Shown here: in pieces, positions 1-31,719 of the stretch
Layout of the letters: each line of letters begins with the position of its first letter
Position numbering within the stretch: position 1 is the stretch's first letter
Virus record (IMG/VR): IMGVR_UViG_3300042511_000631
Coordinates: 1 to 64,000 of that record
Source: a virus
Reading direction: 5' to 3' (one strand)
Length of the DNA: 64,000 nt
The notes under the pieces: generated by a model
Seen by the model: only the letters and a program-made list of their open reading frames with translations
Database searches by the model: none
What the model was told of the DNA's origin: nothing
Position numbers and translations under genes: made by a program

Positions 1-120
1 CCAACTCCTCCACCGCCAACTCCTCCACCGCCAACTCCTCCACCGCCAACTCCTCCACCGCCAACTCCTCCACCGCCAACTCCTCCACCGCCAACTCCTC
101 CACCGCCAACTCCACCGCCT
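1..120 (+). repeat. 15-bp coding tandem repeat (CCAACTCCTCCACCG)
   Basis: 7 perfect copies (1-105) plus one variant copy (106-120). Confidence 0.97.
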
Positions 121-240
121 CCGGCGTGTACCCCTGGCGCGGATTGCGCATCGTTCTGTAACGAGTTTGATGCTTTGTACTACTACTACTTGTATGATTC
201 AAGTTGTAACTGTGTTTACTCGGGCTATACGTTCTGTTAG
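1..240 (+). CDS. 3' end of a Pro-rich protein: (PTPPP)n followed by a 6-Cys C-terminal tail (5' truncated by window edge)
   Basis: Frame 1 is open from base 1: (PTPPP)x8-PACTPGADCASFCNEFDALYYYYLYDSSCNCVYSGYTFC-TAG; not in the ORF track. Confidence 0.8.
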   Translation, partial: PTPPPPTPPPPTPPPPTPPPPTPPPPTPPPPTPPPPTPPPPACTPGADCASFCNEFDALYYYYLYDSSCNCVYSGYTFC

Positions 241-626: not shown

Positions 627-863
627 ATGTCGGAGTTATCGCCATGGCAAAAATATAAAGAAAAAATGGGTGATACTCGCCCGTGGGATTTACTAAACCC
701 TGAAAAGAATCGAGCTAGCGAGGAAGTCGCAAACACTCGGTATGAGGTGTGCTTAACCTGCCCAGAGTTTATTAACGTCACTAAACAATGTAAACAGTGC
801 GGGTGTTTTATGGCAGCTAAAACTAAGCTAGAAGCAGCTGTTTGCCCCTTAGGAAAGTGGTAA
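627..863 (+). CDS. small Cys-rich protein (DUF6171-like)
   Basis: RYEVCLTC...QCKQCGCFM...CPLGKW. Confidence 0.7.
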   Translation: MSELSPWQKYKEKMGDTRPWDLLNPEKNRASEEVANTRYEVCLTCPEFINVTKQCKQCGCFMAAKTKLEAAVCPLGKW

Positions 864-865
864 GT

Positions 866-1432
866 ATGTTTAACGCAAAAACCCAAGGAAACTTTATTCC
901 TCAAGACAAGGTTGATTACATCCTTGACATTGTTTCTAAGAACGATTACTGGGAGCCGTCAAGCAGTGAGTTCTGGGACAAGCGAGTTATTAATATTTCA
1001 AAGTCCTACAGCGTAGATAAAGATCTTGGAGACTTTTTAAAGGAAACTGCGCTTAGAATTAAAGAGTTTATTGAACAAGAATACACTTTAATGGATGAGG
1101 TGTACCCAGACGTTATGACTATCAATCGGTGGTTTCCCGGAATGGAACAACCGCCTCATGCAGATGACATGACTAACACAGATGTTAAAGGTCTAGAGCA
1201 TCGAGTCTTTGGGTCAATCATTTATTTAAATACTGACTATACCGGAGGTCATACTTACTACCCTAATCACGGGGTAGAGATCGTGCCAGAGGCGGGAAAG
1301 CTAGCGGTTCACCCCGGAAACGTAGAGCATCTACATGGTGTCACTAAGCTTGAAGGAAACACCCGATACACGTTATCTGCGTTTTGGGTTCACGATAAGG
1401 ACAAGTCAATTGCCTGGCCCCTATATCAATGA
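866..1432 (+). CDS. 2OG-Fe(II) oxygenase, prolyl 4-hydroxylase-like
   Basis: HAD...IIYLNTDYTGG...HGV...RY: HxD..H facial triad plus 2OG-binding Arg. Confidence 0.9.
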   Translation: MFNAKTQGNFIPQDKVDYILDIVSKNDYWEPSSSEFWDKRVINISKSYSVDKDLGDFLKETALRIKEFIEQEYTLMDEVYPDVMTINRWFPGMEQPPHADDMTNTDVKGLEHRVFGSIIYLNTDYTGGHTYYPNHGVEIVPEAGKLAVHPGNVEHLHGVTKLEGNTRYTLSAFWVHDKDKSIAWPLYQ

Positions 1433-2162
1433 CCCAGGGCATGAAGTCCCTGACAACACAATTTTAATTGTCCCACATTCTTTTGAGGACACCAGTAAGT
1501 ACAACGACATCATTCTTCCGTTAAAAGGAGAAGCTAAGCGCGACTGGTTTACATCGCATTTTTATTATTGTTTACCTCTAACCATTGGAAATCAATACGG
1601 TTTTGTTATTAAGTCTTTGCGGGATTTTGATGTGACTTGGTCAGGAGGCTTAGCTCAAGCTGAGATCACATTTACTGATGGCTTAAACGGCGCTCCTCAA
1701 ATTATTTCAAACGGTTTTGGGTCTGGGATCATTACCGTACAGAACTACTTTGCTATAAAAACTCCAATAGGCGTAAACGTCATGGTCATCCAACCGCCAA
1801 ATATGTTTACACCTGGACTTGTGGCAATGACAGCAGTTATTGAGGCTGATCAAATTCGCCGAGACTTTACCTTTAACTTAAAAATCACTGTGCCTAACTA
1901 CAAAATAAGTGTTAAGCGCGGGGACGCGGTGGGGGCATTTATCCCTATCCCTAGGTACTTTGTAGATAAGTTTGAAGTAGCTTCCGTCAAAGACGTTTTT
2001 CCTGATGAGCTTCATTTAAATGAGATATCTGAGTCAAACGCCTTAGGCCGTGAGAGGAACAACATTGACCGCAGCAGGCCACACGCGTCTGGTAGGCGGT
2101 ATTTTAACGGTAAACATGTAGATGACAGCTCCTACCCTGACCATCAAAAGCGAGTCCGCTAA
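1410..2162 (+). CDS. DUF6065-like protein
   Basis: RDWF..HFYYCLPLTIGNQYGF; similar to 24499..25221; TTG start after AAGGA. Confidence 0.7.
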   Translation: MPGPYINDPGHEVPDNTILIVPHSFEDTSKYNDIILPLKGEAKRDWFTSHFYYCLPLTIGNQYGFVIKSLRDFDVTWSGGLAQAEITFTDGLNGAPQIISNGFGSGIITVQNYFAIKTPIGVNVMVIQPPNMFTPGLVAMTAVIEADQIRRDFTFNLKITVPNYKISVKRGDAVGAFIPIPRYFVDKFEVASVKDVFPDELHLNEISESNALGRERNNIDRSRPHASGRRYFNGKHVDDSSYPDHQKRVR

Positions 2163-3234: not shown

Positions 3235-3495
3235 CTATGTAAATTGTCTTTTAGACCGTCTTGATATATTTTTACGTTCGTCTTCCGTTGTTCCCGCCCA
3301 GATCCCGCGTTCGCGGTTTTCTAAAGCCCAAGTAAGGCAAGCGGCGTTGAAATCACATGTTCTACATATAGCTTTGATTTGTCGTGCCGCGGAAGCTTCT
3401 TCAATTCTATCCGTTGGAAAGAATGTTTCTAAGTCCACTTTACGACAAGGTTGTGTGCCATCAAAGGCCGGAGCCTTATACGTGCATTTGTCCAT
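3235..3495 (-). CDS. whiB: WhiB-family transcription factor
   Basis: C..D...FFP, CxxC, C, GIWAG turn motif. Confidence 0.92.
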   Translation of the reverse strand: MDKCTYKAPAFDGTQPCRKVDLETFFPTDRIEEASAARQIKAICRTCDFNAACLTWALENRERGIWAGTTEDERKNISRRSKRQFT

Positions 3496-19992: not shown

Positions 19993-20005
19993 TAGGGAAA
20001 TATAA

Positions 20006-21388
20006 ATGGCTAAGAAGACTGGTAAACGTTCCGCGGCATCAAACGACTTTTTAGAGCCATTAGCGCCAACAAGCGTATCTGCTACAGATGTTGGAACAGG
20101 CAGAGCGTTTAACAATGGTGCAGCCACGGTTACATTTTCTTTGCCCGCACTATCACCTGCTGCTACATCATTTACTGTAACTTCATCTCCTGGAGGATAT
20201 ACCGGAACCGGGTCATCTTCCCCAGTTACAGTCACAGGTTTGCAATCTAACACCGCCTACACATTTACCGCAACAGCAACTAACGCTTCTGGAACTTCTC
20301 AAGCATCTACGGCATCAGCTTCTATTACCGCAACAACAGTTCCTGCTCAAATGTCCGCCCCAACCCCAACTGCCGGGGTTAACCAAAACTCAATTGCTTT
20401 TTCAGCACCGGCAACTGGTGGAAAAACTATTACTAGCTTTACCATAACAGGCTCTGATGCCACTACTGGAACAGGTGCGACTTCCCCAATTACTATCGCT
20501 GATACTGGTGGAACGTCACAGACATACACAGTCACCGCAACTAACGCTAATGGAACAAGCGTTGCTTCTGCTGCGTCTGGCTCTATTACTACGTTATCCC
20601 CATTTTTCCCGCCATTCTTCCCACCGTTCTTTCCATTTTTCCCGCCATTCTTCCCACCGTTCTTTCCATTTTTCCCATTCTTCCCGCCTTTCTTCCCGCC
20701 ATTCTTCCCATTCTTCCCGCCTTTCTTCCCGCCATCATTTGGTCCTTTCTTCCCGCCATTCTTCCCATTCTTCCCGCCTTTCTTCCCGCCATCATTTGGT
20801 CCTTTCTTCCCGCCATTCTTCCCACCATACTTTGCGTATGTGCCGCCTCCAGCGTTTAGCAAAAACTCCCTAGGCCCTAACGTACTTGTTAGAGGAGAAA
20901 ACGGTTTAATTCGTGCACAAGATTTAGTACTTGGCGACGTTATTCACTCTCTTGATATTCCAGGAATTCCGCAAAACTTTAGAGAGATTGGGACAACTCC
21001 AGAGGATCTTGCGGCAATGTCTTGGGATGTAGAGGCGATCTTATCGGCAACCCCAGTACTAACTACAATTAATAGAATACAGATTGCGCAAAGAACTGGT
21101 GCGGTAATTGTAAGCGGTGAAATGTTTACACGAAACCACCGCATACTTATTGAAAGATCTGGAATTGTAAAGATTGTAAAGGCTCAAGAGCTTTTAGAAA
21201 CAGATAAGGTGTTCGATTACCAAACATCTACTTTTGTTGATATAACTCTAGAATTTATTAACGATATTGAGTTTTATTCGTATAGCATTAACTGTGAGCC
21301 GTACGATTTTTACTTAACAGAGTCTACGTTAACATTTGATAATATTGAATGGTACCCAGACGTAGACTCTCCAAACGCGGTAGAGTAA
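20006..21388 (+). CDS. FN3-FN3-(Pro/Phe)n-Hint domain protein
   Basis: Two FN3 repeats (VTGLQSNTAYTFTATATN); 86-aa P/F tract; Hint blocks SLGPNVLV, TRNH, YSINCEPYDFY. Confidence 0.8.
   Translation: MAKKTGKRSAASNDFLEPLAPTSVSATDVGTGRAFNNGAATVTFSLPALSPAATSFTVTSSPGGYTGTGSSSPVTVTGLQSNTAYTFTATATNASGTSQASTASASITATTVPAQMSAPTPTAGVNQNSIAFSAPATGGKTITSFTITGSDATTGTGATSPITIADTGGTSQTYTVTATNANGTSVASAASGSITTLSPFFPPFFPPFFPFFPPFFPPFFPFFPFFPPFFPPFFPFFPPFFPPSFGPFFPPFFPFFPPFFPPSFGPFFPPFFPPYFAYVPPPAFSKNSLGPNVLVRGENGLIRAQDLVLGDVIHSLDIPGIPQNFREIGTTPEDLAAMSWDVEAILSATPVLTTINRIQIAQRTGAVIVSGEMFTRNHRILIERSGIVKIVKAQELLETDKVFDYQTSTFVDITLEFINDIEFYSYSINCEPYDFYLTESTLTFDNIEWYPDVDSPNAVE
20600..20857 (+). repeat. PFF/PPFF coding microsatellite with a 57-bp higher-order duplication
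   Basis: FFPPFFPFFPPFFPPSFGP twice (atcatttggtcc at 20734 and 20791). Confidence 0.95.
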
Positions 21389-21391
21389 AAA

Positions 21392-21904
21392 TTGATTATT
21401 TATAATGACCATAAATCCATAAAATTTAATCCTGATATAAAAGAATATCCAAAAGAATTATCTGGATCATGGTTTTGTTTTACAAAAATAGAAGGTCATC
21501 CAATTCTTGCTGGGATGTGTGCTGTTTATTTTAATGACGAATACCCAAGCGGAACAATTATAGTTTCTAACTACGTACTAGATCAATATCCAGATATATA
21601 CGCTACATGGGATAAAGACTATATGTCAAATAGAATGTTTGTATCCCCAAAATTAAGAAAAAGCGGAAAAGGCAAAAACGCACTTATTGTCGGAGATCAG
21701 TTTATTAAGTTTTTAGGAAATGAGTTACAATATTCTTATGGGGATCATGAAAATGGAGATTTTCTTTTTAATGGGGCATACTCTTTAAATAAAAAAAATG
21801 AAAACAAATATGTTAATGACCTTAACATGTTTGACTTTAGAGACTCAGCCTACCCACTAATACATTTTGATAAAAGGTTCATAAAATATGAAGTATACGC
21901 ATAG
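21392..21904 (+). CDS. GNAT-like acyltransferase
   Basis: MFVSPKLRKSGKGKNAL matches acetyl-CoA-binding motif A (V.P..R..G.G). Confidence 0.5.
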   Translation: MIIYNDHKSIKFNPDIKEYPKELSGSWFCFTKIEGHPILAGMCAVYFNDEYPSGTIIVSNYVLDQYPDIYATWDKDYMSNRMFVSPKLRKSGKGKNALIVGDQFIKFLGNELQYSYGDHENGDFLFNGAYSLNKKNENKYVNDLNMFDFRDSAYPLIHFDKRFIKYEVYA

Positions 21905-22460
21905 AGATACAAAAGTATTTACTAAAAATATAGCTACATTAAACTCTGAAGATATCTTATCTTTAAAGAGTAGCACGCATAAAGATGTATACAGCTATGA
22001 GAACTTTAAAAAAATAGGATATGAAAAAATTAATAGCCCTAAAAATATATTTCAAGAATATAATGCAGAAACGTATAAAGTGTATAAAGAGATCTCAAAT
22101 CTACTAAATGACGCCTGTAATCATTATCTAATAGATCAAGAGCGGCAAAATTATTTTATTAAAGGTAAAGTGTTTGAGTACAACAAAGATCATAATAATG
22201 AGATTTTTGATTTTCCTGGGAGAGATATTCCAATTTTTCATGGGTTTGTTATTTTGGGCGAAGAGGGATTAAAGCAAACATACTACACTGATAAAAGTAA
22301 AAAAGAGTTTATTTTTAGTAAAAATACAATCACACTATCCGCACCAACAAATCTTATAAATAATAAAGTTAATAACAGCTGCAAAGTTATAGAGTACTAT
22401 ATATCCCCATTGTCATCTACTATTCAAAATGAAAAAAATCTTTGGGTTCCTATTTTATGA
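21888..22460 (+). CDS. hypothetical protein, possibly a degenerate DSBH/oxygenase fold
   Basis: Similar size and beta pattern to neighbours (FHGFVIL) but no clear HxD. Confidence 0.55.
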   Translation: MKYTHRDTKVFTKNIATLNSEDILSLKSSTHKDVYSYENFKKIGYEKINSPKNIFQEYNAETYKVYKEISNLLNDACNHYLIDQERQNYFIKGKVFEYNKDHNNEIFDFPGRDIPIFHGFVILGEEGLKQTYYTDKSKKEFIFSKNTITLSAPTNLINNKVNNSCKVIEYYISPLSSTIQNEKNLWVPIL

Positions 22461-23038
22461 AATCGTATAGCACAAACAACTTTTTAGAAACTGATGCCTT
22501 TAATGAAGTGCACTTAGCTTGTGTAGAAAAAAGTAAAAGCTTTAGAAATATACATTATGCGAGCGGGTATGGCAGATACGGCGTTTTTATAGACTTTTCA
22601 AAAGAAATTGAAGATATTTTTGTTAAAAAAGCAAGAGAAGCCTTTAAAACAGAGGATTTATTTATTACTTACATCCAATTAGTTAAATATCAGATAGTAG
22701 AAAACAATATCCCAAGGCTCACTCCCCATATTGATGACCTGCCAGGAACACGGGTTATTGACTTGTGTGTTGACACGACTTTGAGTAATTGGGGTCTTTT
22801 GGTTAACGATACGCTGTTTATAGATACGCCTAACACGGCAATATTTTTATATGGGCAAGAAGAGATCCACTCTAGGCCAGAGTACACTTCAAACAGCCCA
22901 AAAGACTACTCTTTACAACTACTTATAAACTTTGCGCCCAAAAACTTTTGGTTTTTTAAAGGAGACTACAAAAAAGCCTTAAAATATGTAATTCCTTCCC
23001 CGGTTATGTACGGCGATGGTGTTGTAACACAAAGTTGA
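22457..23038 (+). CDS. 2OG-Fe(II) oxygenase
   Basis: LTPHIDD...HSR; ATGA overlap with the previous gene. Confidence 0.75.
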   Translation: MKSYSTNNFLETDAFNEVHLACVEKSKSFRNIHYASGYGRYGVFIDFSKEIEDIFVKKAREAFKTEDLFITYIQLVKYQIVENNIPRLTPHIDDLPGTRVIDLCVDTTLSNWGLLVNDTLFIDTPNTAIFLYGQEEIHSRPEYTSNSPKDYSLQLLINFAPKNFWFFKGDYKKALKYVIPSPVMYGDGVVTQS

Positions 23039-23091
23039 ACACCAAAGCCAGTTGGTGCTATAGTTCGTAGAACTTTAAAAGTGGAGATATT

Positions 23092-23811
23092 ATGGATGTA
23101 TACAACGAGAATGAAAACCCCTGGTTTACTAAAGATCGGTCTGAGACAGCTTCCAACAGGGTTGTAAGACTAATGCCTAAAAGCAATATCCCTATTAGTA
23201 ATCCGGGACTAGGGTTAAATGTTTATCATAATACTTTTTCTTTGGATGACTCTAAAAGGTATATTAAAACGCTTGAGTCCAACTTGGCTAATGGCGGCAA
23301 ATATAAGTGGTCAGAAGCCCAAGTAACAAACTCTGACGTGCCGATTAAAAAAGCAAGAGATTGCGTAGACTTTAAGTACAAACAAGAAAATCTAGGGCCA
23401 AGAGACGAATCTAATAAAGAGTTACTTGATCTTCATGAAGAGATATATCAAAAACTAAAGATGTGTGTGGACGACTACGCACACTACTGGGGCATAAATG
23501 TTACATATTATGAAGCATTTAACTTTGTAAAATACGAAGGTGAGGGTACCCATTTTAATATTCATGCCGATCATGGCCCTGCTTACAACTGCACAGTCTC
23601 TGCGGTAATCTATATTAATGACGATTATGAAGGTGGAGAGCTTAAATTTCCAAGACTAGATAACCTTGTTCATGTCCCAAAAGTTGGTGATATAGCTATT
23701 TTCCCTTCAAACTATATTTATGAACACGCATCTTTGCCGATGAAAACAGGAACAAAATACTGTGTTGTTATCATGACAGATATAAATCTTTTAGGCCATC
23801 CGACAACTTAA
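23092..23811 (+). CDS. 2OG-Fe(II) oxygenase, prolyl 4-hydroxylase-like
   Basis: HADHG, YINDDYEGGEL, HAS...KY. Confidence 0.92.
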   Translation: MDVYNENENPWFTKDRSETASNRVVRLMPKSNIPISNPGLGLNVYHNTFSLDDSKRYIKTLESNLANGGKYKWSEAQVTNSDVPIKKARDCVDFKYKQENLGPRDESNKELLDLHEEIYQKLKMCVDDYAHYWGINVTYYEAFNFVKYEGEGTHFNIHADHGPAYNCTVSAVIYINDDYEGGELKFPRLDNLVHVPKVGDIAIFPSNYIYEHASLPMKTGTKYCVVIMTDINLLGHPTT

Positions 23812-23824
23812 ACTAGGAGAATAT

Positions 23825-24499
23825 ATGAGTACAGAACCTACAACCCCACAATCTTGGAGTAGTTATGAAGAGCTTGCTCCAGGAATATTTGTTTACCACG
23901 ACGTCTTACCAACAGGTCTAAACCTTGTTGATAGACTAGAGTCTGTTTTACAACCTTTAGGGTCTACTGGGTATGCTTGGCAACCAGCTTATGTGGGGTA
24001 TCAACAGCTAATGCCGGAGTATAGAGATTGTGTTGATTTTAAGTTTAAAAAAACAGATGTTCAAAAAGATAATTCAGAAAGCTCTAGGCAACTACAAGAA
24101 ATTTGGCAAGACTGCTACGATAGACAAGCGTTAGCGGTAGAGGATTATTGCCAACGATTTAACATCAACAACTTAAGGTATTGGGAAGCCTTTAACTATA
24201 TTAAGTATGAGGCGGGGCATCATTTTATGGAGCATCACGATCACGGGTTCTCTTATAACTGCACGCTGTCTTTAGTCGCCTATCTTAATGATACTTTTGA
24301 GGGTGGAGAGTTGTTCTTTAGACTTCAAGGGCTAACATATGTCCCAAAAGCTGGAGATGTTGTACTATTCCCGTCTAACTTTATGTACCCTCATCAAGCA
24401 AAAGTCGTTCACTCTGGGACAAAATACTCATTAGTAACAATGCTTGACTATAGTGAAAAGTACCATACACCAGACATGTATCATGAGACTGGATCATAA
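23825..24499 (+). CDS. 2OG-Fe(II) oxygenase, prolyl 4-hydroxylase-like
   Basis: HHDHG, YLNDTFEGGEL, HQA...KY; close paralogue of the previous gene. Confidence 0.92.
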   Translation: MSTEPTTPQSWSSYEELAPGIFVYHDVLPTGLNLVDRLESVLQPLGSTGYAWQPAYVGYQQLMPEYRDCVDFKFKKTDVQKDNSESSRQLQEIWQDCYDRQALAVEDYCQRFNINNLRYWEAFNYIKYEAGHHFMEHHDHGFSYNCTLSLVAYLNDTFEGGELFFRLQGLTYVPKAGDVVLFPSNFMYPHQAKVVHSGTKYSLVTMLDYSEKYHTPDMYHETGS

Positions 24500-25221
24500 T
24501 GTCAATTATTACGGCTTATAAAAAAACACCAACGGCGTTGATTATAGAGCCAATGTCTATTAAGCGCGACTGGATGGACGAAACTCCACAAGGCCATGCT
24601 TATAGGTGCCACCCGGTAACCTCCGCCAATGTTGTTGGTTGGAGCATATCTTCTCCAGTAGACATTAAGTTTATTTGGAACGGTATTAACGACACAAGCG
24701 GTACATCTGTAAAAATTTTAGAAGGTCAAACCTATGTTTATACAGGTAGAGGGCAATCTACAGTTAGCTTTAATACTGGTTTTATCCTTAAAACAAATCA
24801 AAATGTAAGTGTACTAACTGTTACACCTCAAAATTATTTTAATCCAGATATAGAAGTCATGTCTTCTTTGATATCTACATCCTTTTTAAGCACTGATTTC
24901 CCGTTAGCAATTAAGTGCCTGACAGCAAACAAAGAAATTACTATTAAAGCAGGAACTCCAATAGCAACTATCATTCCTATATCTTTGACCTCTTTAAAGG
25001 ATGAATCGGTTGAAGTTGTTGAGTTTGTTCAAACTAAAGAGTACACCGATGCGGTAACATCCTATGGCGCGGCCGCTCAAGAAATAAATAAAACCGGAGA
25101 GTGGACTGATTGGTATAGAAATGCTGTAAACGAAAAGGGGGATTCAGTAGGGTCCCATGAAGTAAAAAACTTAAAGCTTAGTGTTATTGATAATACAGGG
25201 GCTAATAATGAAAATAATTAA
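24499..25221 (+). CDS. DUF6065-like protein
   Basis: RDWMDET...AYRCHPVTSANVVGW. Confidence 0.7.
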   Translation: MSIITAYKKTPTALIIEPMSIKRDWMDETPQGHAYRCHPVTSANVVGWSISSPVDIKFIWNGINDTSGTSVKILEGQTYVYTGRGQSTVSFNTGFILKTNQNVSVLTVTPQNYFNPDIEVMSSLISTSFLSTDFPLAIKCLTANKEITIKAGTPIATIIPISLTSLKDESVEVVEFVQTKEYTDAVTSYGAAAQEINKTGEWTDWYRNAVNEKGDSVGSHEVKNLKLSVIDNTGANNENN

Positions 25222-25972
25222 TTTTATAAGCAATAGACCGTGGCTTACTAAAGAGAGTAAATCAAAACCGGTTCCGACCTCAAAGTCAATACCGCAATGG
25301 TACAAAAACGCGGATAGGTTTGCTAAAATGCCAACTGGAGAACACTACCAAGCAACAAAAGAGATGTGTCCATTCCCTAAAAAAGGCACAACTGATGATT
25401 ATGGGAAGATCCCTACATGGAAAGCTTGTCCTGCACTTTTGGATGTTTTAACAACAGGGTATACCTTGATCACTCCTTGCGACATAGAGTTTTTCTTAGA
25501 TAGCGCTGGGCAGATTGATTTTAAAATTGAAGACCCAATGTATAAAGAGTTTGTTAACAAACGCCCACCTATGCCACAATTTTATCACCCAAAGGGTTAC
25601 TACGAATATCATTTTGCTTGGTGGCCCGAATGGGCGGTAAAAGTTCCAGCTGGGTATAGCGTTTTATATGTATCTCCGTTTAATCGTTACGACATTCCAA
25701 TTATGACAGTTTCTGGGATTATTGATAACGACGAGGTTAACCTTCCTGGATTAATGCCATTTTTTGTACAAGAAGGCTGGGCTGGAGTTTTACCAGCAGG
25801 CACTCCTTACGCTCAACTGTTGCCTTTTTTAAGGGAAGATTGGAAGTCTGAAATTAACATTCCAAAAGAAGTAGAGATGATACAAAACAATATGGAAAAC
25901 AGCAAAAAGTATCGTATTGCAGATGGAGGGGTGTATCAGAAAGAGGTCTGGACTAGGCGGCTCTACGAATAG
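25208..25972 (+). CDS. DUF6065-related protein
   Basis: PQWYK, TWKACPALLD, SGIIDND, GTPYAQLLPF. Confidence 0.6.
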   Translation: MKIINFISNRPWLTKESKSKPVPTSKSIPQWYKNADRFAKMPTGEHYQATKEMCPFPKKGTTDDYGKIPTWKACPALLDVLTTGYTLITPCDIEFFLDSAGQIDFKIEDPMYKEFVNKRPPMPQFYHPKGYYEYHFAWWPEWAVKVPAGYSVLYVSPFNRYDIPIMTVSGIIDNDEVNLPGLMPFFVQEGWAGVLPAGTPYAQLLPFLREDWKSEINIPKEVEMIQNNMENSKKYRIADGGVYQKEVWTRRLYE

Positions 25973-25976
25973 GGAA

Positions 25977-25994
25977 TGGTATAATTAAAACATG
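25977..25994 (+). promoter_or_regulatory. extended -10 promoter, leaderless start
   Basis: TGg-TATAAT (25980-25985), 6 nt, ATG. Confidence 0.7.
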
Positions 25995-26672
25995 AAACAA
26001 AACAATGACTCATACACGACAGTTAAACGCACACCGTCTATGACCCCATCTGGTTGGTTTGGGGATAGCAAGGACATGATTGTCGAGCTAGAGAACTTCA
26101 TGACGCTAGAAGAAATAGAGTTTTTAGAAAAAGCTGCTAAATCTTTAACAATTTGGGATGTAACGCAAAGCCATACGAATGAAAATGGAACCGTTACCTA
26201 TGATTCAGATTATTGGAAAGATAGGGTTGCAAGTCAACCAACCTTAGATAAAAATGATCCAAAGATATCCCCAGTAATTGCTGGACTATTCATAAGATTA
26301 AAACCAATTATTGAAGAGTTTTATAAGGTAAAGGCCCAGCCAACAGGCACAACTATTGTTAAATGGCTCCCTGGGCAGTTTCAAAACCCCCATGCTGATA
26401 AAGAGCTTCATGAAGGGCCTGATGCTGGGACACCTAATGATTTTCCAAACTATGACCTTTCAAGTTTGTTTTATCTTAATGACGATTATGAAGGTGGCGA
26501 ACTATACTTCCCACTACAGGGGGTACAGTTTAAACCTAAAAAAGGCGCTGCTTACTTCTTCCCGGGAGATAAAAATTATATTCACGGGGTTACTGAAATC
26601 AAGAGTGGTTTAAGGTTTACATGCCCACTATTTTGGGAAATAACCCGACATACAGGGGATAGGCAACCGTAA
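25992..26672 (+). CDS. 2OG-Fe(II) oxygenase, prolyl 4-hydroxylase-like
   Basis: HADKE, YLNDDYEGGEL, HGV...RF. Confidence 0.92.
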   Translation: MKQNNDSYTTVKRTPSMTPSGWFGDSKDMIVELENFMTLEEIEFLEKAAKSLTIWDVTQSHTNENGTVTYDSDYWKDRVASQPTLDKNDPKISPVIAGLFIRLKPIIEEFYKVKAQPTGTTIVKWLPGQFQNPHADKELHEGPDAGTPNDFPNYDLSSLFYLNDDYEGGELYFPLQGVQFKPKKGAAYFFPGDKNYIHGVTEIKSGLRFTCPLFWEITRHTGDRQP

Positions 26673-26679
26673 TGACGGA

Positions 26680-26694
26680 TATAATACAATTATG
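26680..26694 (+). promoter_or_regulatory. -10 promoter, leaderless start
   Basis: TATAAT (26680-26685), 6 nt, ATG. Confidence 0.65.
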
Positions 26695-27465
26695 AAATCT
26701 ATTTATGATATCCCGCTTAATTCGGCCGAAGGGGCCCCTAGCTTCTTAGGCCAATTTAAGGGTAAAGTAACGCTGCTAACAAATACGACAGTGGGCTGTG
26801 GTAATGCTAATCAAATGGAAGTTCTCCAATGGCTTCAAGATAAGTACGGTGGAGATGATTTCCAAGTAGTTGCTATCCCTACTAATGACTACTGTGGCCC
26901 TGGCGTTACTAAGGGCAAGTGGTCACAAGGCATTACTTGTGGCTTAGACTCACAAGAGTATGGCAAAGACACTTATGGGACTACCTTTAAGTTTTCAGAG
27001 ATGGTTGCGTCAAACCCAAATAAAAGTGCTAATGAAATGAGCCCTCACAAAGGAAATGACTCTGTAAATGGGTTAGGTCAACCTAAACAAAAAACTCATG
27101 AGCTGTATAAAGAAATATCAGATCAAATGCTTGCGTATGCCGCAAAACAAAAAGAGCTCGGCATTCCAGATAGAGATGGGTATATGTCACCTTGGCTAAA
27201 TCAACCTGTCGCTAATGGAGCAATGCAAGGCGGAAACTTTGAAAAGTATCTTATTGATAAAGACGGATTTGTGGCAAATTGGTTCCAATGTACCGTTTTA
27301 AATTATGATATTGAAAAAACCCTTAAAGAAGATTTAATAGCTAAAGGCACCCCTGCTGCTATGGGAGAAGGCAGAACTCCAGAAGTATTTGAAGAAGAAT
27401 ATAACCTTGTTCAACAAGAGATAGAAAAATTAATTGCTGGAGATAAATCCCTTATAAATAACTAA
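26692..27465 (+). CDS. glutathione peroxidase-like (Cys-GPx) protein
   Basis: GKVTLLTNTTVGCG, VAIPTNDYC, NFEKYLIDKDG. Confidence 0.85.
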   Translation: MKSIYDIPLNSAEGAPSFLGQFKGKVTLLTNTTVGCGNANQMEVLQWLQDKYGGDDFQVVAIPTNDYCGPGVTKGKWSQGITCGLDSQEYGKDTYGTTFKFSEMVASNPNKSANEMSPHKGNDSVNGLGQPKQKTHELYKEISDQMLAYAAKQKELGIPDRDGYMSPWLNQPVANGAMQGGNFEKYLIDKDGFVANWFQCTVLNYDIEKTLKEDLIAKGTPAAMGEGRTPEVFEEEYNLVQQEIEKLIAGDKSLINN

Positions 27466-27481
27466 ACGGAGCACAAGCACA

Positions 27482-28237
27482 ATGAATCTAGAAAACAAAA
27501 AAAGAATAACAAAAGACATAGTTGTTTATAAGAACTTTATAAGCAGAGAAGACTGCAAAAAAATGATTCAAGCCTTAGATGCTCAAGCGGACAACGGGGC
27601 AATTTCTTGGATGCCTATTTCATTTTATGAGTCATACTCTTCAGTATTGCCACAAGACAACGATAAAGAAATAATTGATGCTGGGCTATCTCCAACTATA
27701 TTCTCAGACATTGAAAAAATAATGCCAGAGGCAATTGCTTCAGTTCACGACTTAGACCCAAAAACAATTTCTAAAATCGGGTATCACACACAAAAATGGG
27801 AGCCGGGAGCATACGCAAGAATCCACTCTGACAATACGGATGCGCATGGAAAGTCAGGGGCATTTACAAGAAGCCGTTACGCAGGTTTTCTATATCTTAA
27901 TGATGACTTTAAAGGAGGATTACTTAAGTTTCCAAGTCAACACATAGAGATCAAACCAGAAGTTGGAATGCTTGCCGTTTTTGACGGGGGATTTAACAAC
28001 ATGCACGAAGTATCTTTAATAGAGAGCGGAGTAAGGTACACCATTGGATCTTTCTGGGATGATAGAGAAGAGTCAGATTATCCGCAAGAACTAAGAGATG
28101 CTTGGGCTGCAGAAATGAAAGAGACTAGAGCTCAACAAGAAGTTGAACGAGCAGAGTGGCAAGATTTGCTTAAGCAGGGCTGGAAGCTAGATGCGGACGG
28201 TAATAAATACAAAGTAAAAGAGACTACAAATGATTGA
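27482..28237 (+). CDS. 2OG-Fe(II) oxygenase, prolyl 4-hydroxylase-like
   Basis: HSDN, YLNDDFKGG, HEV...RY. Confidence 0.92.
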   Translation: MNLENKKRITKDIVVYKNFISREDCKKMIQALDAQADNGAISWMPISFYESYSSVLPQDNDKEIIDAGLSPTIFSDIEKIMPEAIASVHDLDPKTISKIGYHTQKWEPGAYARIHSDNTDAHGKSGAFTRSRYAGFLYLNDDFKGGLLKFPSQHIEIKPEVGMLAVFDGGFNNMHEVSLIESGVRYTIGSFWDDREESDYPQELRDAWAAEMKETRAQQEVERAEWQDLLKQGWKLDADGNKYKVKETTND

Positions 28238-28889
28238 GCCCTTTAAACAACAGTTGATAGATAGCGGGTATGTAGTTACAGATATTACCCCAGAACTATT
28301 TTCTGTTGAAAACTTTTTATCACAAGATCAACTAAATACTTTTTGGGATATTATCCACAGTACGTCTCAAGAAGATTGGGAAGTAGAGTACCACGCAAAC
28401 TTAAAGTATTTTTGCATGGAAAAATTTGGCAGAGATGATGTTGATAACCTGGTTGCTGAAGGTAAGTTTGAAATTACTCAAAATTGGAAAGATAAAAACT
28501 TTAATATATTACATCACGAGATCCAGAGGCCATTATATGACGGCTTAAACTCAATGGTAGTCAAAGCTGATCCAGAGTTAATTTTAAGTGGTTTTGCAAC
28601 AATTCAAAGAATGCAAACAGGAGTAGAACTAAAAGCTCATACTGACCAAAAAACAGACCCCTCTATAAAATACGCTACGATTGTATATATTAATGATGAC
28701 TATGCAGATGGCGAGTTATTTTTTCCAAACCTGGGGATCCAGTTAAAGCCTAAACCAGGAACTATGTTGTTTTTTCCAGGTAATGAGCAATATGAGCATG
28801 GGGTTAAGCACGTAGGTGAGGGCCAAATAAGATACGTTCTTGTTGGCTTTATTAAAGAAAAATATCACTATCAAAATAATAAATACTAG
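28230..28889 (+). CDS. 2OG-Fe(II) oxygenase, prolyl 4-hydroxylase-like
   Basis: HTDQ, YINDDYADGEL, HGV...RY. Confidence 0.92.
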   Translation: MIEPFKQQLIDSGYVVTDITPELFSVENFLSQDQLNTFWDIIHSTSQEDWEVEYHANLKYFCMEKFGRDDVDNLVAEGKFEITQNWKDKNFNILHHEIQRPLYDGLNSMVVKADPELILSGFATIQRMQTGVELKAHTDQKTDPSIKYATIVYINDDYADGELFFPNLGIQLKPKPGTMLFFPGNEQYEHGVKHVGEGQIRYVLVGFIKEKYHYQNNKY

Positions 28890-28899
28890 GGAGCATTAA

Positions 28900-29589
28900 A
28901 TGGATAAAGAAATTTTAAATGAAAAAGTATACTACTATAAAAATGGCGTTAAAAACTTTGAAGAGCTTATGAAAAATGTTTATGAGTTAGACAATCTAGA
29001 TAACCCTCAACCTTGGGAAAACTGGACCGCATCCAACGACAAAAACTTTATCTATGGAAAAACCATGTCATTTGATAAAAACCAAATAGGAAAACTAGAA
29101 GATCCGTACAAATCTAAAATGTCTTATATTTTTGATACTATTATGGAATCATTTTATGATGTCTCTAAAGATTTTGCCATGTCTATTGGGGATACTGATG
29201 AACCTAGACTGTTTCCAGTATTTAATATTAAAAAATACAATGTTGGAATTGGAATGGGTGCCCATTTTGACCAGCTAGATGGGGATCAAACCCTAAGGTA
29301 CTCTTTAGTTATGTATTTAAACGATGATTTTGAGGGTGGAGAAATATCATTTAAATTATCTGACTATAAAAATATAGGGGAATTTCCAACTCCAAATCTT
29401 GATTATGATGTGGCTGTTGCAAATAATGAAATTGATTTTGGATTAAAACCTAAAGCTGGAAGTATTATTATTTTTCCATCTATGGCGCCATATCACCATA
29501 CTGCTCATATTGTAAAAACTGGATTTAAATATATGGTGCCAAGTCACTGGATCCATAATAATATGGACCTTCATCAAAGTCACATGTAA
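28900..29589 (+). CDS. 2OG-Fe(II) oxygenase, prolyl 4-hydroxylase-like
   Basis: HFDQ, YLNDDFEGGEI, HTA...KY. Confidence 0.92.
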   Translation: MDKEILNEKVYYYKNGVKNFEELMKNVYELDNLDNPQPWENWTASNDKNFIYGKTMSFDKNQIGKLEDPYKSKMSYIFDTIMESFYDVSKDFAMSIGDTDEPRLFPVFNIKKYNVGIGMGAHFDQLDGDQTLRYSLVMYLNDDFEGGEISFKLSDYKNIGEFPTPNLDYDVAVANNEIDFGLKPKAGSIIIFPSMAPYHHTAHIVKTGFKYMVPSHWIHNNMDLHQSHM

Positions 29590-29594
29590 TATAA

Positions 29595-30260
29595 ATGAAA
29601 ACAGCTATTGTAACTGGGGCAAGCAAAGGGGTAGGGTTAGCAACAGTTAAACGCCTGTCTGAAAATGGGTACAAGGTCATCGCTGTTTCAAGAGATCTTT
29701 CCAAAGTGTCTGAGCTTGTTTCTGATAACGTTGAGGTCTATAGGCTAGACATTACAGACTCTAAAGCAATAGAAATATTCTTTGAAAAATATAAAAATAT
29801 AACCCTAGACCTTTTAGTTAACAACGCAGGTGGCGGCTCTGGACCAACCCACATTATTAATGAAACTCCAGAAAACTTTAGAAGAGCCTACGATATAAAC
29901 GTAACGGGCCCTATGTATTTATCTCAACTATTTGTACCCTGTATGAGAAGGTCACAATCTCCAACAATTGTCTTTATTACCTCTTTTGGCGGTAAGGTGC
30001 CCTATCGCGGTGGGGGGAACTATACAAATGCCAAGAGGGGTGAGCGCGGTCTAATTGACACCATGAGGCTTGAGTTTCCTCAATTTGGCATTAAAATTAC
30101 AGATATCTGCCCAGCTACCATCGACACCCAAGAACAAAAACGGGATCAGGCGTTAACCGCAGAGGATTTAGCGGAAGCTATTTACTGGGTGGGGTCATTA
30201 CCAAGCCATGTTAATATAAATGAGATTGAAATTTGTCATATTAACAGTAGTAAGTACTGA
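29595..30260 (+). CDS. short-chain dehydrogenase/reductase (SDR)
   Basis: TGASKGVG, NNAG, YTNAK (YxxxK). Confidence 0.92.
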   Translation: MKTAIVTGASKGVGLATVKRLSENGYKVIAVSRDLSKVSELVSDNVEVYRLDITDSKAIEIFFEKYKNITLDLLVNNAGGGSGPTHIINETPENFRRAYDINVTGPMYLSQLFVPCMRRSQSPTIVFITSFGGKVPYRGGGNYTNAKRGERGLIDTMRLEFPQFGIKITDICPATIDTQEQKRDQALTAEDLAEAIYWVGSLPSHVNINEIEICHINSSKY

Positions 30261-30282
30261 AATTTGTGACATACTTGTTTAT

Positions 30283-30432
30283 ATGGGCAGAGACCATTTT
30301 TCTAAAACGTTTCACTCACCTTATTTTCAATCTAATTACTATAAGGAAGAAACCCCTGGCGGAAAATTTGAAACTAAAGTAGAGAACTGGCTTAAAAAAG
30401 TGTTCTTTCGTCCTAGAAAAGATACCAAATGA
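30283..30432 (+). CDS. small hypothetical protein
   Basis: ATG at 30283; ATGA overlap with the next gene. Confidence 0.5.
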   Translation: MGRDHFSKTFHSPYFQSNYYKEETPGGKFETKVENWLKKVFFRPRKDTK

Positions 30433-30950
30433 GATCATACACTCCGGGCGGTCGGTTTGACGCAGACTTTGAAACAGATGACCTACTCGTAGGTGTCGAT
30501 ACTGATCTTAAGAATCCAGTAGGCACCTCCGCGCTTTGGTACATCTACGACTCAGTCAATACTGTGGTTGACCCTATCTACGATACCGGCCAAGACTTAA
30601 GTGGCACCCTTGGTGGCAAAAAGTGGACTGGCCCATTTACCATCCCTGTGGTCAAAGCTATTATTGACCAAGGTCAAGCTATGACATCCGCGGTCGGTTT
30701 CTATAACGCCGACACCTTGCACCTTACCTTTAACATTGAAGATGTCCAGAAATACGCCCCTAATATCATTATCAAACCCGACACAAACAACCGCGACCGT
30801 GTCGTTTGGCGCGGTCAGGTATATCGCCCATTCTCAATCCAAGAACGCGGTATCATTTCCGAGAGATTTACGATCTTGTCTGTTGACTGTATTCAGGTCA
30901 TGCCTGAAGAAATGGTCAATGACGCTCAATTTCAGACCTACGCGTCTTAA
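30429..30950 (+). CDS. putative head-closure/neck protein
   Basis: DRVVWRGQVY SPP1 gp16-like pattern; position before the tail genes. Confidence 0.55.
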   Translation: MRSYTPGGRFDADFETDDLLVGVDTDLKNPVGTSALWYIYDSVNTVVDPIYDTGQDLSGTLGGKKWTGPFTIPVVKAIIDQGQAMTSAVGFYNADTLHLTFNIEDVQKYAPNIIIKPDTNNRDRVVWRGQVYRPFSIQERGIISERFTILSVDCIQVMPEEMVNDAQFQTYAS

Positions 30951-30958
30951 GGAAACAC

Positions 30959-31108
30959 ATGGCTAAAGACACTAACCCTTGTTGGGATGGCTACGTTCAA
31001 GTAGGCATGAAGATGAAGAATGGCAAGAAGGTTCCGAACTGCGTACCTGCGGGTTCTGGAAAGAAAAAAGTTGCAAAACCTACTACAAAGAAGGCTGGTA
31101 AAAAATAA
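30959..31108 (+). CDS. small Lys-rich protein (49 aa)
   Basis: MAKDTNPCWDGYVQVGMKMKNGKKVPNCVP...; AAGGA RBS; TAATG coupling. Confidence 0.8.
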   Translation: MAKDTNPCWDGYVQVGMKMKNGKKVPNCVPAGSGKKKVAKPTTKKAGKK

Positions 31109-31281
31109 TGTGCGCAGCATGTGGATGTGGAAAGAAAAAGGGCGAGCCAGGTTTTGGCAAGGGCCCAAAGAAGACTGCTAAGAAAGCGGCTTTAAAAGGT
31201 AAACAAAAGAATCTTGATGCAGATAAAGACGGCAAGCTAGAAGGCTCTGACTTCGCTGCGCTACGAAAGAAAAAGAAGTAA
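31108..31281 (+). CDS. small Lys-rich protein (57 aa), CxxCGC N-terminus and EF-hand-like loop
   Basis: MCAACGCGKKK...LDADKDGKLEGSDF. Confidence 0.8.
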   Translation: MCAACGCGKKKGEPGFGKGPKKTAKKAALKGKQKNLDADKDGKLEGSDFAALRKKKK

Positions 31282-31424
31282 TGTGCGCGACTTGCGGCTG
31301 TGGTCAACCAAAGAACAAGCACGGGATGAAGACAGTACAAGCAGCGAACAAGAAGTTTGCTGCCAAGAAAGCTGCGCCTGCAAAGGGCAGTAAGTCTTCA
31401 ATGGTCAGAAAAAAGGGTATGTAA
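31281..31424 (+). CDS. small Lys-rich protein (47 aa), CxxCGC N-terminus
   Basis: MCATCGCGQPKNKHG...; TAATG coupling. Confidence 0.8.
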   Translation: MCATCGCGQPKNKHGMKTVQAANKKFAAKKAAPAKGSKSSMVRKKGM

Positions 31425-31540
31425 TGGCTCACGATGACAAAAAATGGACCAAAGGCATGACCCCTGCTCAAAAGAAAAAATTTGAGAAAAAGGATGAAAA
31501 GAACGACGCTAAATTAGCTAAGAAGATTAAGAAGAAGTAA
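31424..31540 (+). CDS. small Lys-rich protein (38 aa)
   Basis: MAHDDKKWTKGMTPAQKKKFEKK...; TAATG coupling. Confidence 0.7.
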   Translation: MAHDDKKWTKGMTPAQKKKFEKKDEKNDAKLAKKIKKK

Positions 31541-31714
31541 ATGAAATCTCTCCCTAAAGGTGTTATGGATAAAGTTAACAAAAACGTTAACTCCGCCAAA
31601 GCGGCAAAGCCGCCCATGGCAGCTCCTGGGATGCCTGTAAAAAAGATTGTGACTAAAACAGTCCACTTTGGATCAGATGCCCCAAAGAAAGCGGCCCCGG
31701 CCAAAAAGAAGTAA
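31541..31714 (+). CDS. small Lys/Ala/Pro-rich protein (57 aa)
   Basis: MKSLPKG...KKAAPAKKK; abuts the previous stop codon. Confidence 0.7.
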   Translation: MKSLPKGVMDKVNKNVNSAKAAKPPMAAPGMPVKKIVTKTVHFGSDAPKKAAPAKKK

Positions 31715-31719
31715 AGCTT

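Follow-up and report, generated by a model that had tools for sequence, protein, structure and literature searches.

Gene organization of the island

The window analysed here is a stretch of 64,000 nucleotides (positions 1 to 64,000 of the IMG/VR record IMGVR_UViG_3300042511_000631), which comes from an uncultured lake phage. A preliminary description of this DNA had reported a gene with a Pro/Phe tract followed by 13 enzyme-like genes in the same direction, and the open reading frames, strand and coordinates of this layout were all verified (Table 1). The 14 ORFs, from P0001 to position 30260, lie on the + strand with intergenic gaps of -41 to +53 nt. We place them in the fibre block because a tail-fibre gene sits immediately upstream; structural genes return 3' of the island, as described, with a conserved 173-aa gene and a tail sheath gene at 32954. 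The island genes abut and no terminator-like site was detected on the + strand from 20006 to 31719. Their G+C content is 0.35-0.40, compared with 0.44-0.46 in the flanks; low G+C is a frequent trait of hypervariable auxiliary-gene islands.

Table 1. Coordinates of the features discussed, with the evidence for each
Feature	Position	Strand	Evidence
Second FN3-(PPPPT)n protein, C-terminal end, Cys/Tyr-rich tail	1..240	+	ORF start at other genome end, L087:11437
Small Cys protein, DUF6171-like	627..863	+	PF19668 E 5e-5, below cut-off
Seventh P4H-type oxygenase of the genome, second minimal module	842..1432	+	PF13640, 32.8 bits
DUF6065 protein of second module	1335..2162	+	PF19541 E 2e-32
Tail-fibre protein, 960 aa	17110..19992	+	Mtd_N PF18454 E 3e-11; several PHROG tail-fibre families
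P0001, 460 aa, FN3 x2 - (PFF/PPFF)n - Hint-like, candidate substrate	20006..21388	+	FN3 PF00041 E 3.7e-6
Pro/Phe tract, aa 199-284	20600..20857	+	40 F + 37 P per 86 residues (90% Pro/Phe)
Hint/BIL-fold domain, aa 288-446	20867..21343	+	Structure model pLDDT 87; Foldseek matches
U1, 170 aa, possible GNAT acetyltransferase (lead only)	21392..21904	+	ESM features 0.92-0.93 toward GNAT clusters
U2, 190 aa	21888..22460	+	No family match (Pfam, PHROG)
OXY2, 198 aa, possible divergent oxygenase	22442..23038	+	HxD..H motif
P4H-type 2OG-Fe(II) oxygenase, paralogue 1	23092..23811	+	PF13640 E 7e-11; orthogroup, one member per locus
P4H-type oxygenase, paralogue 2	23825..24499	+	PF13640 E 2e-12; orthogroup support 0.99
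DUF6065 protein	24499..25221	+	PF19541 E 1e-31
DUF6065-like protein (phrog_7084)	25181..25972	+	phrog_7084 E 8e-30; 889 homologues
P4H-type oxygenase, paralogue 3	25992..26672	+	PF13640 E 1.4e-8
GPx-like protein with C-terminal extension	26692..27465	+	PF00255 E 2.5e-8, 33.9 bits (cut-off 27)
P4H-type oxygenase, paralogue 4	27482..28237	+	PF13640 E 9e-8; orthogroup support 1.0
P4H-type oxygenase, paralogue 5	28230..28889	+	PF13640 E 1e-10
P4H-type oxygenase, paralogue 6, ~23-residue insert	28900..29589	+	PF13640 E 4e-9; orthogroup support 1.0
Classical short-chain dehydrogenase (SDR)	29595..30260	+	PF00106 E 8e-40; TGxxxGxG + YxxxK in translation

The island encodes six clear P4H-type 2OG-Fe(II) oxygenases, one candidate recognized by motif (OXY2), a DUF6065 protein, a DUF6065-like protein, a GPx-like protein and an SDR, while the remaining two genes, U1 and U2, have no assigned family. 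Seven oxygenases and a possible degenerate one had been proposed. Paralogues 1 to 6 pass the Pfam cut-off for PF13640 and carry the HxD...H triad (6/6), and the seventh stands at motif level: OXY2 resembles by eye an ORF in the P4H module of a relative (L083:8080-8700), and its hhalign comparison with the P4H profile was not significant. U2, the supposed degenerate copy, showed no relation to this profile. The GNAT-like assignment of U1 survives as a weak lead from ESM features, the Pfam and PHROG searches giving no match, whereas the GPx-like and SDR assignments were confirmed by their Pfam matches. Two DUF6065-like proteins had also been claimed; one is DUF6065 proper and the other matches phrog_7084 and has a dUTPase/dCTP-deaminase-like fold (Z 9.0). 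The likely start of the latter is the ATG at 25208, and an exact copy on record begins about nine residues in. The stop of paralogue 2 overlaps the DUF6065 start.

The best solved relatives of the P4H profile are the P4H of B. anthracis (8e-12), P3H1, the P4H of PBCV-1 (5.5e-9), C-P4H, LH3 and PHD2, with TET reaching only 0.009. The nearest solved relatives are accordingly peptidyl-prolyl hydroxylases, the chlorovirus enzyme among them, as had been claimed. The HxD...H triad is invariant across the P4H-type oxygenases, and the paralogues appear to have been retained as distinct enzymes, since they fall into old orthogroups that each have a single member per locus. Among deposited phages, their only homologues are 2OG oxygenases of Synechococcus myoviruses, with 29-38% identity over the catalytic core. 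A search of about 50,000 deposited phage genomes gave no match to DUF6065 proper. Three representatives of the domain are fused to PF13640, and others to sulfotransferases and TPR; in bacteria it is found fused to Cupin_8/JmjC, as a neighbour of a PMT protein O-mannosyltransferase and directly 3' of two-partner-secretion or autotransporter adhesin genes. Among 80 bacterial DUF6065 loci, the phage-derived profile detected a P4H-like gene within 8 kb in only 2.

The repeat protein and a second, minimal module

The claim of an 86-aa tract made almost purely of Pro and Phe holds, the two residues accounting for 77 of 86 positions. Its DNA consists of a 33-nt repeat unit with mixed synonymous codons and includes a 57-nt exact duplication of 2.4 copies. 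The listed public short-read contigs end within the repeat (20630-20794) and do not bridge it, so that for the exact length of the tract we depend on the assembly.

The C-terminal domain had been taken for an autoprocessing-type domain, and the fold is indeed that of Hint: the best Foldseek match of the predicted model is the BIL domain 2lwy of C. thermocellum (E 2e-7), followed by inteins and Hedgehog. In an alignment with canonical C...HNK relatives, Ser288 occupies the Cys1 position, the TRNH of block B is retained and Asp-Asn replaces His-Asn, with a 14-residue tail after it. These two replacements make autoprocessing activity of this copy uncertain. In related contigs, too, the enzyme cluster comes after a P0001 homologue that shares this layout.

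P0001 is a paralogue of an FN3-(PPPPT)n protein encoded at the genome ends, which is accompanied by a DUF6171-like gene, a family that goes with Cys-rich tails, and by one P4H and one DUF6065 gene. The pairing of tract gene and enzymes is thus found twice in this genome. The (PPPPT)n tract is the most Pro-rich of the genome, yet it is paired with a single P4H. Further strongly Pro-rich ORFs occur elsewhere, such as that of a long Pro/Glu/Thr-rich protein near the genome end.

Association of the repeat gene with the enzymes in related phages

Pro/Phe-tract genes and P4H-type enzymes co-occur in hundreds of related phage fragments, and the co-occurrence check proposed in the preliminary description gives a positive result in both directions. 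In 80 viral contigs retrieved via the DUF6065-like gene alone, the gene order is fibre, FN3-(PFF)n, 0-4 small genes, P4H, DUF6065-like, P4H, DUF6065, more P4H and SDR, with 5-10 P4H genes per cassette; the tract gene lies at most six genes before the cluster in 42 of the 43 loci that have 2.5 kb or more of upstream sequence, and further up in the 43rd. When loci were retrieved with a degenerate DNA pattern of the repeat alone, enzymes were found within 4.5 kb after the tract ORF in 67/72 cases (tract ORFs followed by 3 kb or more of sequence). The five exceptions are one contig with a six-P4H cluster elsewhere, two with a second tract gene and cluster in the locus, and two small fragments. A single broad phage lineage, whose structural gene order is kept in any case, supplies most of these loci; the proportions therefore overstate the number of independent events, and part of the signal is due to shared inheritance of the gene order.

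The association persists in diverged and rearranged relatives. In those with DUF6065 proper, or with a DUF6065-like protein of only 29-38% identity, one P4H and one DUF6065-family gene directly follow another kind of Pro-rich tail (PGF, PSFG or PV repeats), and more distant metagenome clusters adjoin (PPYF/PPFF)n ORFs devoid of FN3, with the enzyme genes inverted. Oxygenase genes tend to be more numerous where the Pro-rich window is richer in aromatic residues (rho 0.62, n=69, kinship ignored); their number is predicted neither by Pro content alone (rho 0.19) nor by tract length (rho -0.12). The genes between repeat gene and enzymes co-vary with the C-terminal module of the repeat protein: every one of the 43 Cys-rich-tail proteins has small intervening genes after it, nearly all from a 145-aa and/or an 80-aa DUF6171-like family, 36/50 short-tail proteins have no intervening gene, and Ser-type Hint proteins are followed by U1-U2-OXY2, U1 recurring with U2 and OXY2 only behind proteins of this type.

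The content of the cassette varies among relatives (GPx, extra SDR, sulfotransferase). The SDR is the final enzyme in most complete cassettes, the GPx-like gene is present in a minority, and some relatives carry GT60 (PF11397), AspH-like or sulfotransferase genes in the same position, one of them having GT60 and no P4H. In some genomes a tract gene has no enzymes of its own and a cluster lies a few kb off, so that action in trans is needed anyway. The island is thus not confined to this genome, and its conservation as a cassette speaks against a random set of auxiliary genes.

Discussion

We found no published description of a phage cassette combining a Pro/Phe repeat with P4H and DUF6065 genes, and its parts recall several known systems. 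Like PBCV-1, whose P4H is known in structure (PDB 5c5t), the phage encodes both P4H-type 2OG oxygenases and Pro-rich repeats. The PBCV-1 enzyme reportedly accepts as substrates synthetic peptides patterned after repeats of the virus, (PAPK)n among them (Eriksson et al. 1999, J Biol Chem). It is, however, a single enzyme of a eukaryotic virus, its gene and those of its substrates having no fixed neighbourhood, whereas the phage cassette holds 5-10 diverged paralogues, each in its own orthogroup, with DUF6065 partners and an SDR, locked beside one Pro/aromatic polymer gene with exchangeable caps. Marine T4-like cyanophages also carry multi-copy PF13640-type genes in myophage genomes, for which, to our knowledge, no partner repeat protein has been reported; these are described as auxiliary genes, while the genes of the present cassette form an ordered, uninterrupted run linked to a candidate substrate. 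For the cyanophage oxygenases, roles in 2OG balance or DNA repair have been proposed (PMC3037559).

The cap resembles BIL/Hedgehog-type Hint domains. Relatives of P0001 have the canonical Cys1 and a terminal His-Asn followed by one residue or a short tail, which fits cleavage rather than splicing; the P0001 copy departs from them at both sites. We know of no description of a Hint domain capping a Pro/Phe polymer beside hydroxylases. In plant extensins and in Dictyostelium Skp1 with PhyA/Gnt1, prolyl hydroxylation of a Pro-rich stretch is followed by O-glycosylation, and phage relatives have a PF11397 gene (GT60, the Skp1-Hyp GlcNAc-transferase family) directly after P4H and DUF6065; GT60 is absent from the present genome, however, and the repeat is Pro/Phe, not Ser-Pro4. 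The proposed likeness to RiPP clusters holds for the layout, a repetitive precursor gene followed by co-directional tailoring enzymes with an autoproteolytic element present. It is otherwise loose, P0001 being a 460-aa multidomain protein devoid of leader peptide and recognition element, with no export or immunity genes.

The tailoring interpretation of the preliminary description finds partial support. On balance, we lean towards the view that the fibre-block FN3 x2-Pro/aromatic polymer-cap protein is the substrate of the P4H/DUF6065 enzymes that follow it, the tract being, as judged from their co-occurrence, their likeliest target. Inherited synteny could instead account for the arrangement, if the oxygenase and DUF6065 genes were auxiliary genes in a fibre-region hot spot, acting on host metabolites or 2OG/succinate balance, and the Pro/Phe gene merely an old neighbour. 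The low G+C of the island, its variable content, the mutual relatedness of the supporting loci, the independence of enzyme number from tract length and the lack of an assigned role for the Synechococcus homologues all agree with this explanation. We nevertheless consider it unlikely, as adjacency outlasts strand inversions, loss of FN3, changed repeat chemistries and duplication within a genome, the intervening genes follow the cap, the oxygenases have protein hydroxylases as sequence relatives, and bacterial DUF6065 is associated with protein-modifying enzymes and adhesins.

The enzymes might also act chiefly on another protein, such as collagen-like fibres, the long Pro/Glu/Thr-rich protein or host translation factors, the Pro/Phe protein being at most one substrate. 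EF-Tu and ribosomal protein uS12 are substrates of P4H-family enzymes in bacteria and eukaryotes, one relative has a P4H and DUF6065-like pair beside collagen-like GPT fibre genes with no PFF gene in the fetched stretch, and the additional Pro-rich ORFs and the implied action in trans point the same way. Yet the Pro/aromatic tract is the strongest and most immediate genomic partner, and oxygenase number tracks its aromatic content (kinship ignored), which makes this option quite unlikely. Nucleotide or DNA chemistry, in which dUTPase-fold DUF6065 proteins would bind nucleotides and, with the oxygenases and SDR, modify a nucleotide, a nucleotide sugar or phage DNA, appears very improbable. It draws on the top 22 fold matches to dUTPase/dCTP deaminase (Z 9.0-6.0, well above unrelated matches), on a GIIDxD stretch resembling dUTPase motif III, on distant homologues in haloarchaeal viruses and one cyanophage that adjoin thymidylate synthase and DNA polymerase (HSTV-2) or ribonucleotide reductase (S-RIM4), and on a sub-threshold Tet_JBP match of one paralogue. 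However, there is no sequence similarity to solved dUTPases even at E 10, the oxygenases are far closer to peptidyl hydroxylases than to TET or AlkB, the cassette lies in the late structural block away from replication genes, and DUF6065 is fused to protein hydroxylases, sulfotransferases and TPR.

If the repeat protein is the substrate, its Pro/aromatic polymer, carried between two FN3 domains and an exchangeable C-terminal cap, would be hydroxylated by several anciently diverged P4H-type oxygenases, by default on prolines in differing sequence contexts or ring positions and possibly on Phe side chains. DUF6065-family proteins would serve as oxygenase partner subunits, and the SDR, GPx-like and GNAT-like products may further process the hydroxylated product, a role that a sulfotransferase, an AspH-like protein or a GT60 glycosyltransferase would take in relatives. 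A Hint/BIL-type cap would cleave itself, leaving the polymer C-terminus free or transiently esterified. The analysis shows the gene content, folds and family assignments together with the genomic coupling and co-variation; we infer the substrate role of the tract, the modified residues, the order of steps and the virion location of the product. Hydroxylation of Phe, the redox or acyl steps and any influence on adsorption or defence would be pure conjecture. The region is best explained as a copy of a late-gene cassette that is conserved among uncultured freshwater myophages; the whiB gene of this genome points to low-GC Actinobacteria as their probable hosts.

Genomic setting of the island

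The virus record, of which the window covers the first 64 kb, is 96.5 kb long, carries direct terminal repeats and is rated complete. Its tail sheath gene marks the virus as a myophage, whose nearest deposited relatives by this gene are Streptomyces phages (about 39% identity). The presence of a WhiB-like gene and a G+C content near 0.44 agree with a low-GC actinobacterium as host. The same WhiB-like and lysozyme-like neighbours are found in two relatives (L083 and L084), and no tRNA gene was detected in the window.

All the open reading frames of the preliminary description exist; they run in one direction and lie close together, with between -41 and +53 nt from one to the next. The G+C content is 0.35-0.40 over the tract gene and the island (20000-30000), against 0.44-0.46 on both sides. 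Within the gene for a 960-aa fibre protein, three identical promoter-like matches spaced by 39 nt suggest that the fibre contains a tandem repeat of 39 nt (13 residues). Near letter-for-letter copies of the island occur in at least 13 lake-water metagenome runs, none of the listed sequencing runs being an RNA dataset, and megablast returned no match to the whole region among deposited phages.

Features of the window and of related loci (locus numbers designate fetched loci of relatives, L087 being the same genome beyond the window)
Feature	Position	Strand	Remark
DUF6171-like small protein	627-863		four to six Cys; goes with Cys-rich-tail proteins
P4H-type oxygenase	842-1432		PF13640
DUF6065 protein	1335-2162		PF19541, 113 bits
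WhiB-like gene	3235-3495	-	just past second P4H/DUF6065 module
Lysozyme-like gene	3499-4008	-	just past second P4H/DUF6065 module
Promoter-like matches	18485-18592		within fibre gene
P0001 (FN3, Pro/Phe tract, Hint)	20006-21388	+	candidate substrate
Part of the repeat with raised depth	20630-20794		within P0001
U1	21392-21904	+	GNAT-like by language-model features only
U2	21888-22460	+	under PF13640 cut-off
OXY2	22442-23038	+	oxygenase motif; under PF13640 cut-off
DUF6065 protein	24499-25221	+	PF19541, 110.6 bits
DUF6065-like protein	25181-25972	+	phrog_7084 only
Tail sheath	32954-34462		marks myophage
Pro/Glu/Thr/Ser-rich protein	L087:6464-8914		816 aa
GT60 glycosyltransferase	L083:9667-10719; L081:1665-2654		right after P4H/DUF6065
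Extra genes of canonical-Hint loci	L139:3929-5171; L221		between tract gene and P4H cluster
F1 family	L178 and others		126-148-aa protein; goes with Cys-rich-tail proteins

The candidate substrate P0001

P0001, the protein encoded immediately upstream of the island, carries FN3 repeats and the near-pure Pro/Phe tract noticed earlier, which comprises 40 Phe and 37 Pro among its 86 residues (aa 199-284). The underlying DNA repeats a 33-nt unit in which synonymous codons are mixed, and it also holds one recent exact duplication of 57 nt. Public short-read contigs run from the Hint domain across the first half of the island; none of the listed ones spans the repeat (positions 20630-20794), at the edges of which they end. 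Over the repeat, public lake metagenome contigs show a several-fold higher depth. Repeats of related phages probably collapse at this place, which leaves the recorded tract length uncertain.

The 160 C-terminal residues gave a confident fold model (pLDDT 87), for which Foldseek retrieved 2lwy (E 2.2e-7, TM 0.79 on the target), followed by 6y75 BIL2, inteins and Hedgehog (1at0). These matches to bacterial intein-like domains, inteins and Hedgehog bear out the name Hint proposed for this domain. The nucleophile position, Cys1 in relatives, is occupied by Ser288, and the TxxH motif of block B is kept as TRNH (aa 375-378). The C-terminal His-Asn is absent, the window copy and three close relatives having Phe-Asp-Asn and a short tail where other relatives have H-N-K; C-terminal cleavage by the window's domain is therefore doubtful. 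N-terminal cleavage does not need the His-Asn motif.

Enzymes encoded by the island

Six of the 13 island ORFs that follow P0001 and a further one (842-1432) score 32.8 to 50.2 bits against PF13640, the curated cut-off being 27 bits. Of the seven oxygenases counted previously, the six have both the family match and the HxD...H triad, and OXY2 stands at the level of the motif; U2, described as a possible degenerate oxygenase, found no support for any family. Across 11 sequences the iron-binding triad H158, D160 and H212 is invariant, and the basic residue for the 2OG C5 carboxylate is K or R in a G-x-(K/R)-(Y/F) strand. A profile built on these P4H-type proteins matched the P4H of B. anthracis, prolyl 3-hydroxylase 1, PBCV-1 P4H, collagen P4H, lysyl hydroxylase 3 and PHD2, with marginal matches only to TET-like enzymes; as judged by this comparison, their best solved relatives are peptidyl-prolyl and lysyl hydroxylases. 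The window paralogues belong to separate orthogroups, each with a single member in any one locus, which indicates that the duplications are old and that each copy was kept. Among deposited phages, the only P4H homologues are cyanomyovirus oxygenases. Since the first cyanomyovirus comparisons, aquatic phage genomes have been seen to carry 2OG-Fe(II) oxygenase genes in several copies, with no known substrate.

Among the other enzymes, the SDR assignment held (PF00106, E 8e-40), and the translation displays TGASKGVG (Rossmann TGxxxGxG) and Y-T-N-A-K (catalytic YxxxK), as predicted for a classical short-chain dehydrogenase. The peroxidase exceeds the PF00255 cut-off (33.9 against 27 bits, residues 4-110) with a Cys at the expected place in the translation, and we keep the label GPx-like; U1 is tentatively GNAT-like, by language-model features only. 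The likeness to a RiPP cluster is limited to layout: such clusters combine a short precursor made of leader and core with a recognition element in the tailoring enzymes, whereas the candidate substrate here is 460 aa long and made of FN3, repeat and Hint parts, and no island protein matched a RiPP-type family.

One of the two proteins described as DUF6065-like proved to be DUF6065 proper, as did a second protein at 1335-2162. The other remains DUF6065-like: a relative's homologue reached just E 0.041 against PF19541, and ESM features group it with DUF6065 clusters. Its 889 database homologues all lack names. Foldseek with its model gave only E values of about 1e-3, and a wide VIA search returned Z scores of 9.0 to 6.0 for 22 dUTPase or dCTP-deaminase chains, the next unrelated match having Z 4.1; the modeled protein is thus predicted to adopt a dUTPase/dCTP-deaminase-like barrel. 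The family profile retrieved no dUTPase at E up to 10 and nothing meaningful among solved chains, and GIIDxD and G-T-P-x-x-Q stretches recall dUTPase motifs III and IV by eye only. We do not annotate it as a dUTPase.

Conservation of the cassette in relatives

Searching with tblastn for island proteins within the 10 kb flanks of 80 sheath-anchored relatives returned almost none, and complete relatives have only 0 to 2 PF13640 genes each. The idea of an island private to this genome was rejected once loci were fetched via the DUF6065-like gene. In loci retrieved by this gene alone, the order is near-invariant: a fibre gene, an FN3-(PFF)n gene, 0-4 small genes, then P4H, DUF6065-like, P4H, DUF6065 and more P4H genes, which brings their total to 5-10, then GPx in some loci and an SDR in most. 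Among the 43 loci whose upstream DNA reaches 2.5 kb or more, the tract gene lies within six genes upstream in 42 and further up in the last one. Conversely, when a degenerate DNA pattern matching the repeat was the sole means of fetching loci, enzymes were found downstream of 67 of the 72 tract ORFs with enough downstream DNA; the five exceptions (one contig with the cluster elsewhere, two with it behind a second tract gene and two fragments) are not clean counter-examples. The co-occurrence proposed in the preliminary description is thus seen from both sides, most loci belonging to one broad lineage, so that neither 42/43 nor 67/72 is a count of independent events.

A third, more divergent set of metagenome contigs, fetched via a natural DUF6065-P4H fusion protein, has clusters adjoining (PPYF/PPFF)n ORFs; some of these lack FN3, and in some cases the enzyme genes are inverted. 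Three relatives have one P4H and one DUF6065-family gene directly behind a protein with a Pro-rich repeat tail (PGF, PSFG or PV), two of these tails with a canonical Cys...His-Asn Hint domain and one with a Cys-rich tail; in a fourth, the pair adjoins collagen-like fibre genes. A second, minimal module wraps around the ends of the genome studied here and consists of the gene for a Cys-rich-tailed FN3-(PPPPT)n protein, followed by two small genes, a P4H and a DUF6065 gene.

Co-variation within the cassette

The C-terminal module of the tract protein, or cap, is exchangeable (Cys-rich tail, canonical Hint, Ser-type Hint or short tail), and the genes between the tract gene and the first oxygenase track its type. 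Small genes follow all Cys-rich tails (43/43), nearly all of them a 145-aa family and/or an 80-aa DUF6171-like Cys protein; none follow 36 of the 50 short tails, and U1, U2 and OXY2 follow Ser-type Hint proteins, the window's included. The DUF6171-like protein and the F1 family, absent behind short tails, may fold or modify the Cys-rich tail. Some canonical-Hint loci insert a sulfotransferase (PF03567), an Asp/Asn beta-hydroxylase-like protein (PF05118) and a methyltransferase-like protein. Two relatives encode GT60 (PF11397), of the Skp1-hydroxyproline GlcNAc-transferase family; none exists in the window's genome, and G003, a relative with GT60 at its genome ends, is without any PF13640 gene.

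The number of P4H genes showed no correlation with tract length, and that of oxygenases no significant relation with Pro content; the more aromatic the Pro-rich stretch, the higher the oxygenase number, in a comparison uncorrected for relatedness. A single P4H accompanies this genome's (PPPPT)n tract.

Possible roles of the cassette

We lean towards a cassette conserved among phages, whose P4H-type oxygenases, with DUF6065 partners, would act as hydroxylases on the Pro/aromatic polymer in the fibre-block protein encoded next to them. It is rather unlikely that these are auxiliary genes standing beside the tract gene through inherited synteny. Protein hydroxylation directed chiefly at other targets also seems improbable. 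A possible further hydroxylase target is the 816-aa protein encoded beyond the window, which is rich in Pro, Glu, Thr and Ser over very long stretches and whose C-terminal part is conserved, with homologues in L081, L083 and L084.

Nucleotide chemistry, which we regard as very unlikely, draws on remote relatives of the DUF6065-like protein that haloarchaeal viruses and a cyanophage encode (23-29% identity): HSTV-2 gp40 (L274) adjoins thymidylate synthase and DNA polymerase, and the cyanophage S-RIM4 homologue (L275) adjoins ribonucleotide reductase. These neighbourhoods are quite unlike the cassette of the window. Against this reading, natural DUF6065 fusions involve PF13640 oxygenases, sulfotransferases and TPR repeats, and a scan of a genome collection with an 8-sequence DUF6065 alignment (example bacterial loci L278, L290, L312, L317 and L350) revealed fusions to Cupin_8/JmjC protein-hydroxylase domains in Novosphingobium and Sphingomonas, proximity to a PMT protein O-mannosyltransferase, and DUF6065 genes directly behind TpsA/TpsB (two-partner-secretion) or autotransporter adhesin genes in Caulobacter, Bradyrhizobium and Mesorhizobium. 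With our own P4H profile, only 2 of the 80 bacterial loci had a P4H-like neighbour. DUF6065 is absent from the cultured phages of the deposited collection.

Hydroxylation of the adjacent polymer could be part of a broader scheme, of which all parts have only a slim chance of holding jointly. A fibre-associated protein would bear a Pro/aromatic polymer with many hydroxyl groups, which some lineages would also oxidise further, sulfate or glycosylate, so that phages would have their own equivalent of extensins or mussel adhesive proteins; the 5-10 oxygenase paralogues would differ from one another in site or regiochemistry; DUF6065 would present substrates to 2OG protein hydroxylases as a new kind of subunit, also used by bacteria on secreted adhesins; and the Hint cap would make an ester at the polymer end, leading to covalent ligation to the virion or the host envelope.

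We found no description of the cassette in the literature searched. Its phages recur in lake-water metagenomes, and it offers a candidate substrate testable at the bench, a near-pure Pro/Phe polymer encoded right beside the oxygenases. Should the link fail, the strict co-inheritance of polymer gene and enzymes would still need explaining. If it holds, a phage-encoded multi-enzyme pathway would tailor a fibre-region protein of the phage itself, DUF6065 would gain its first functional context, in phages and bacteria alike, and the Hint domain would have a further use beyond inteins and Hedgehog.
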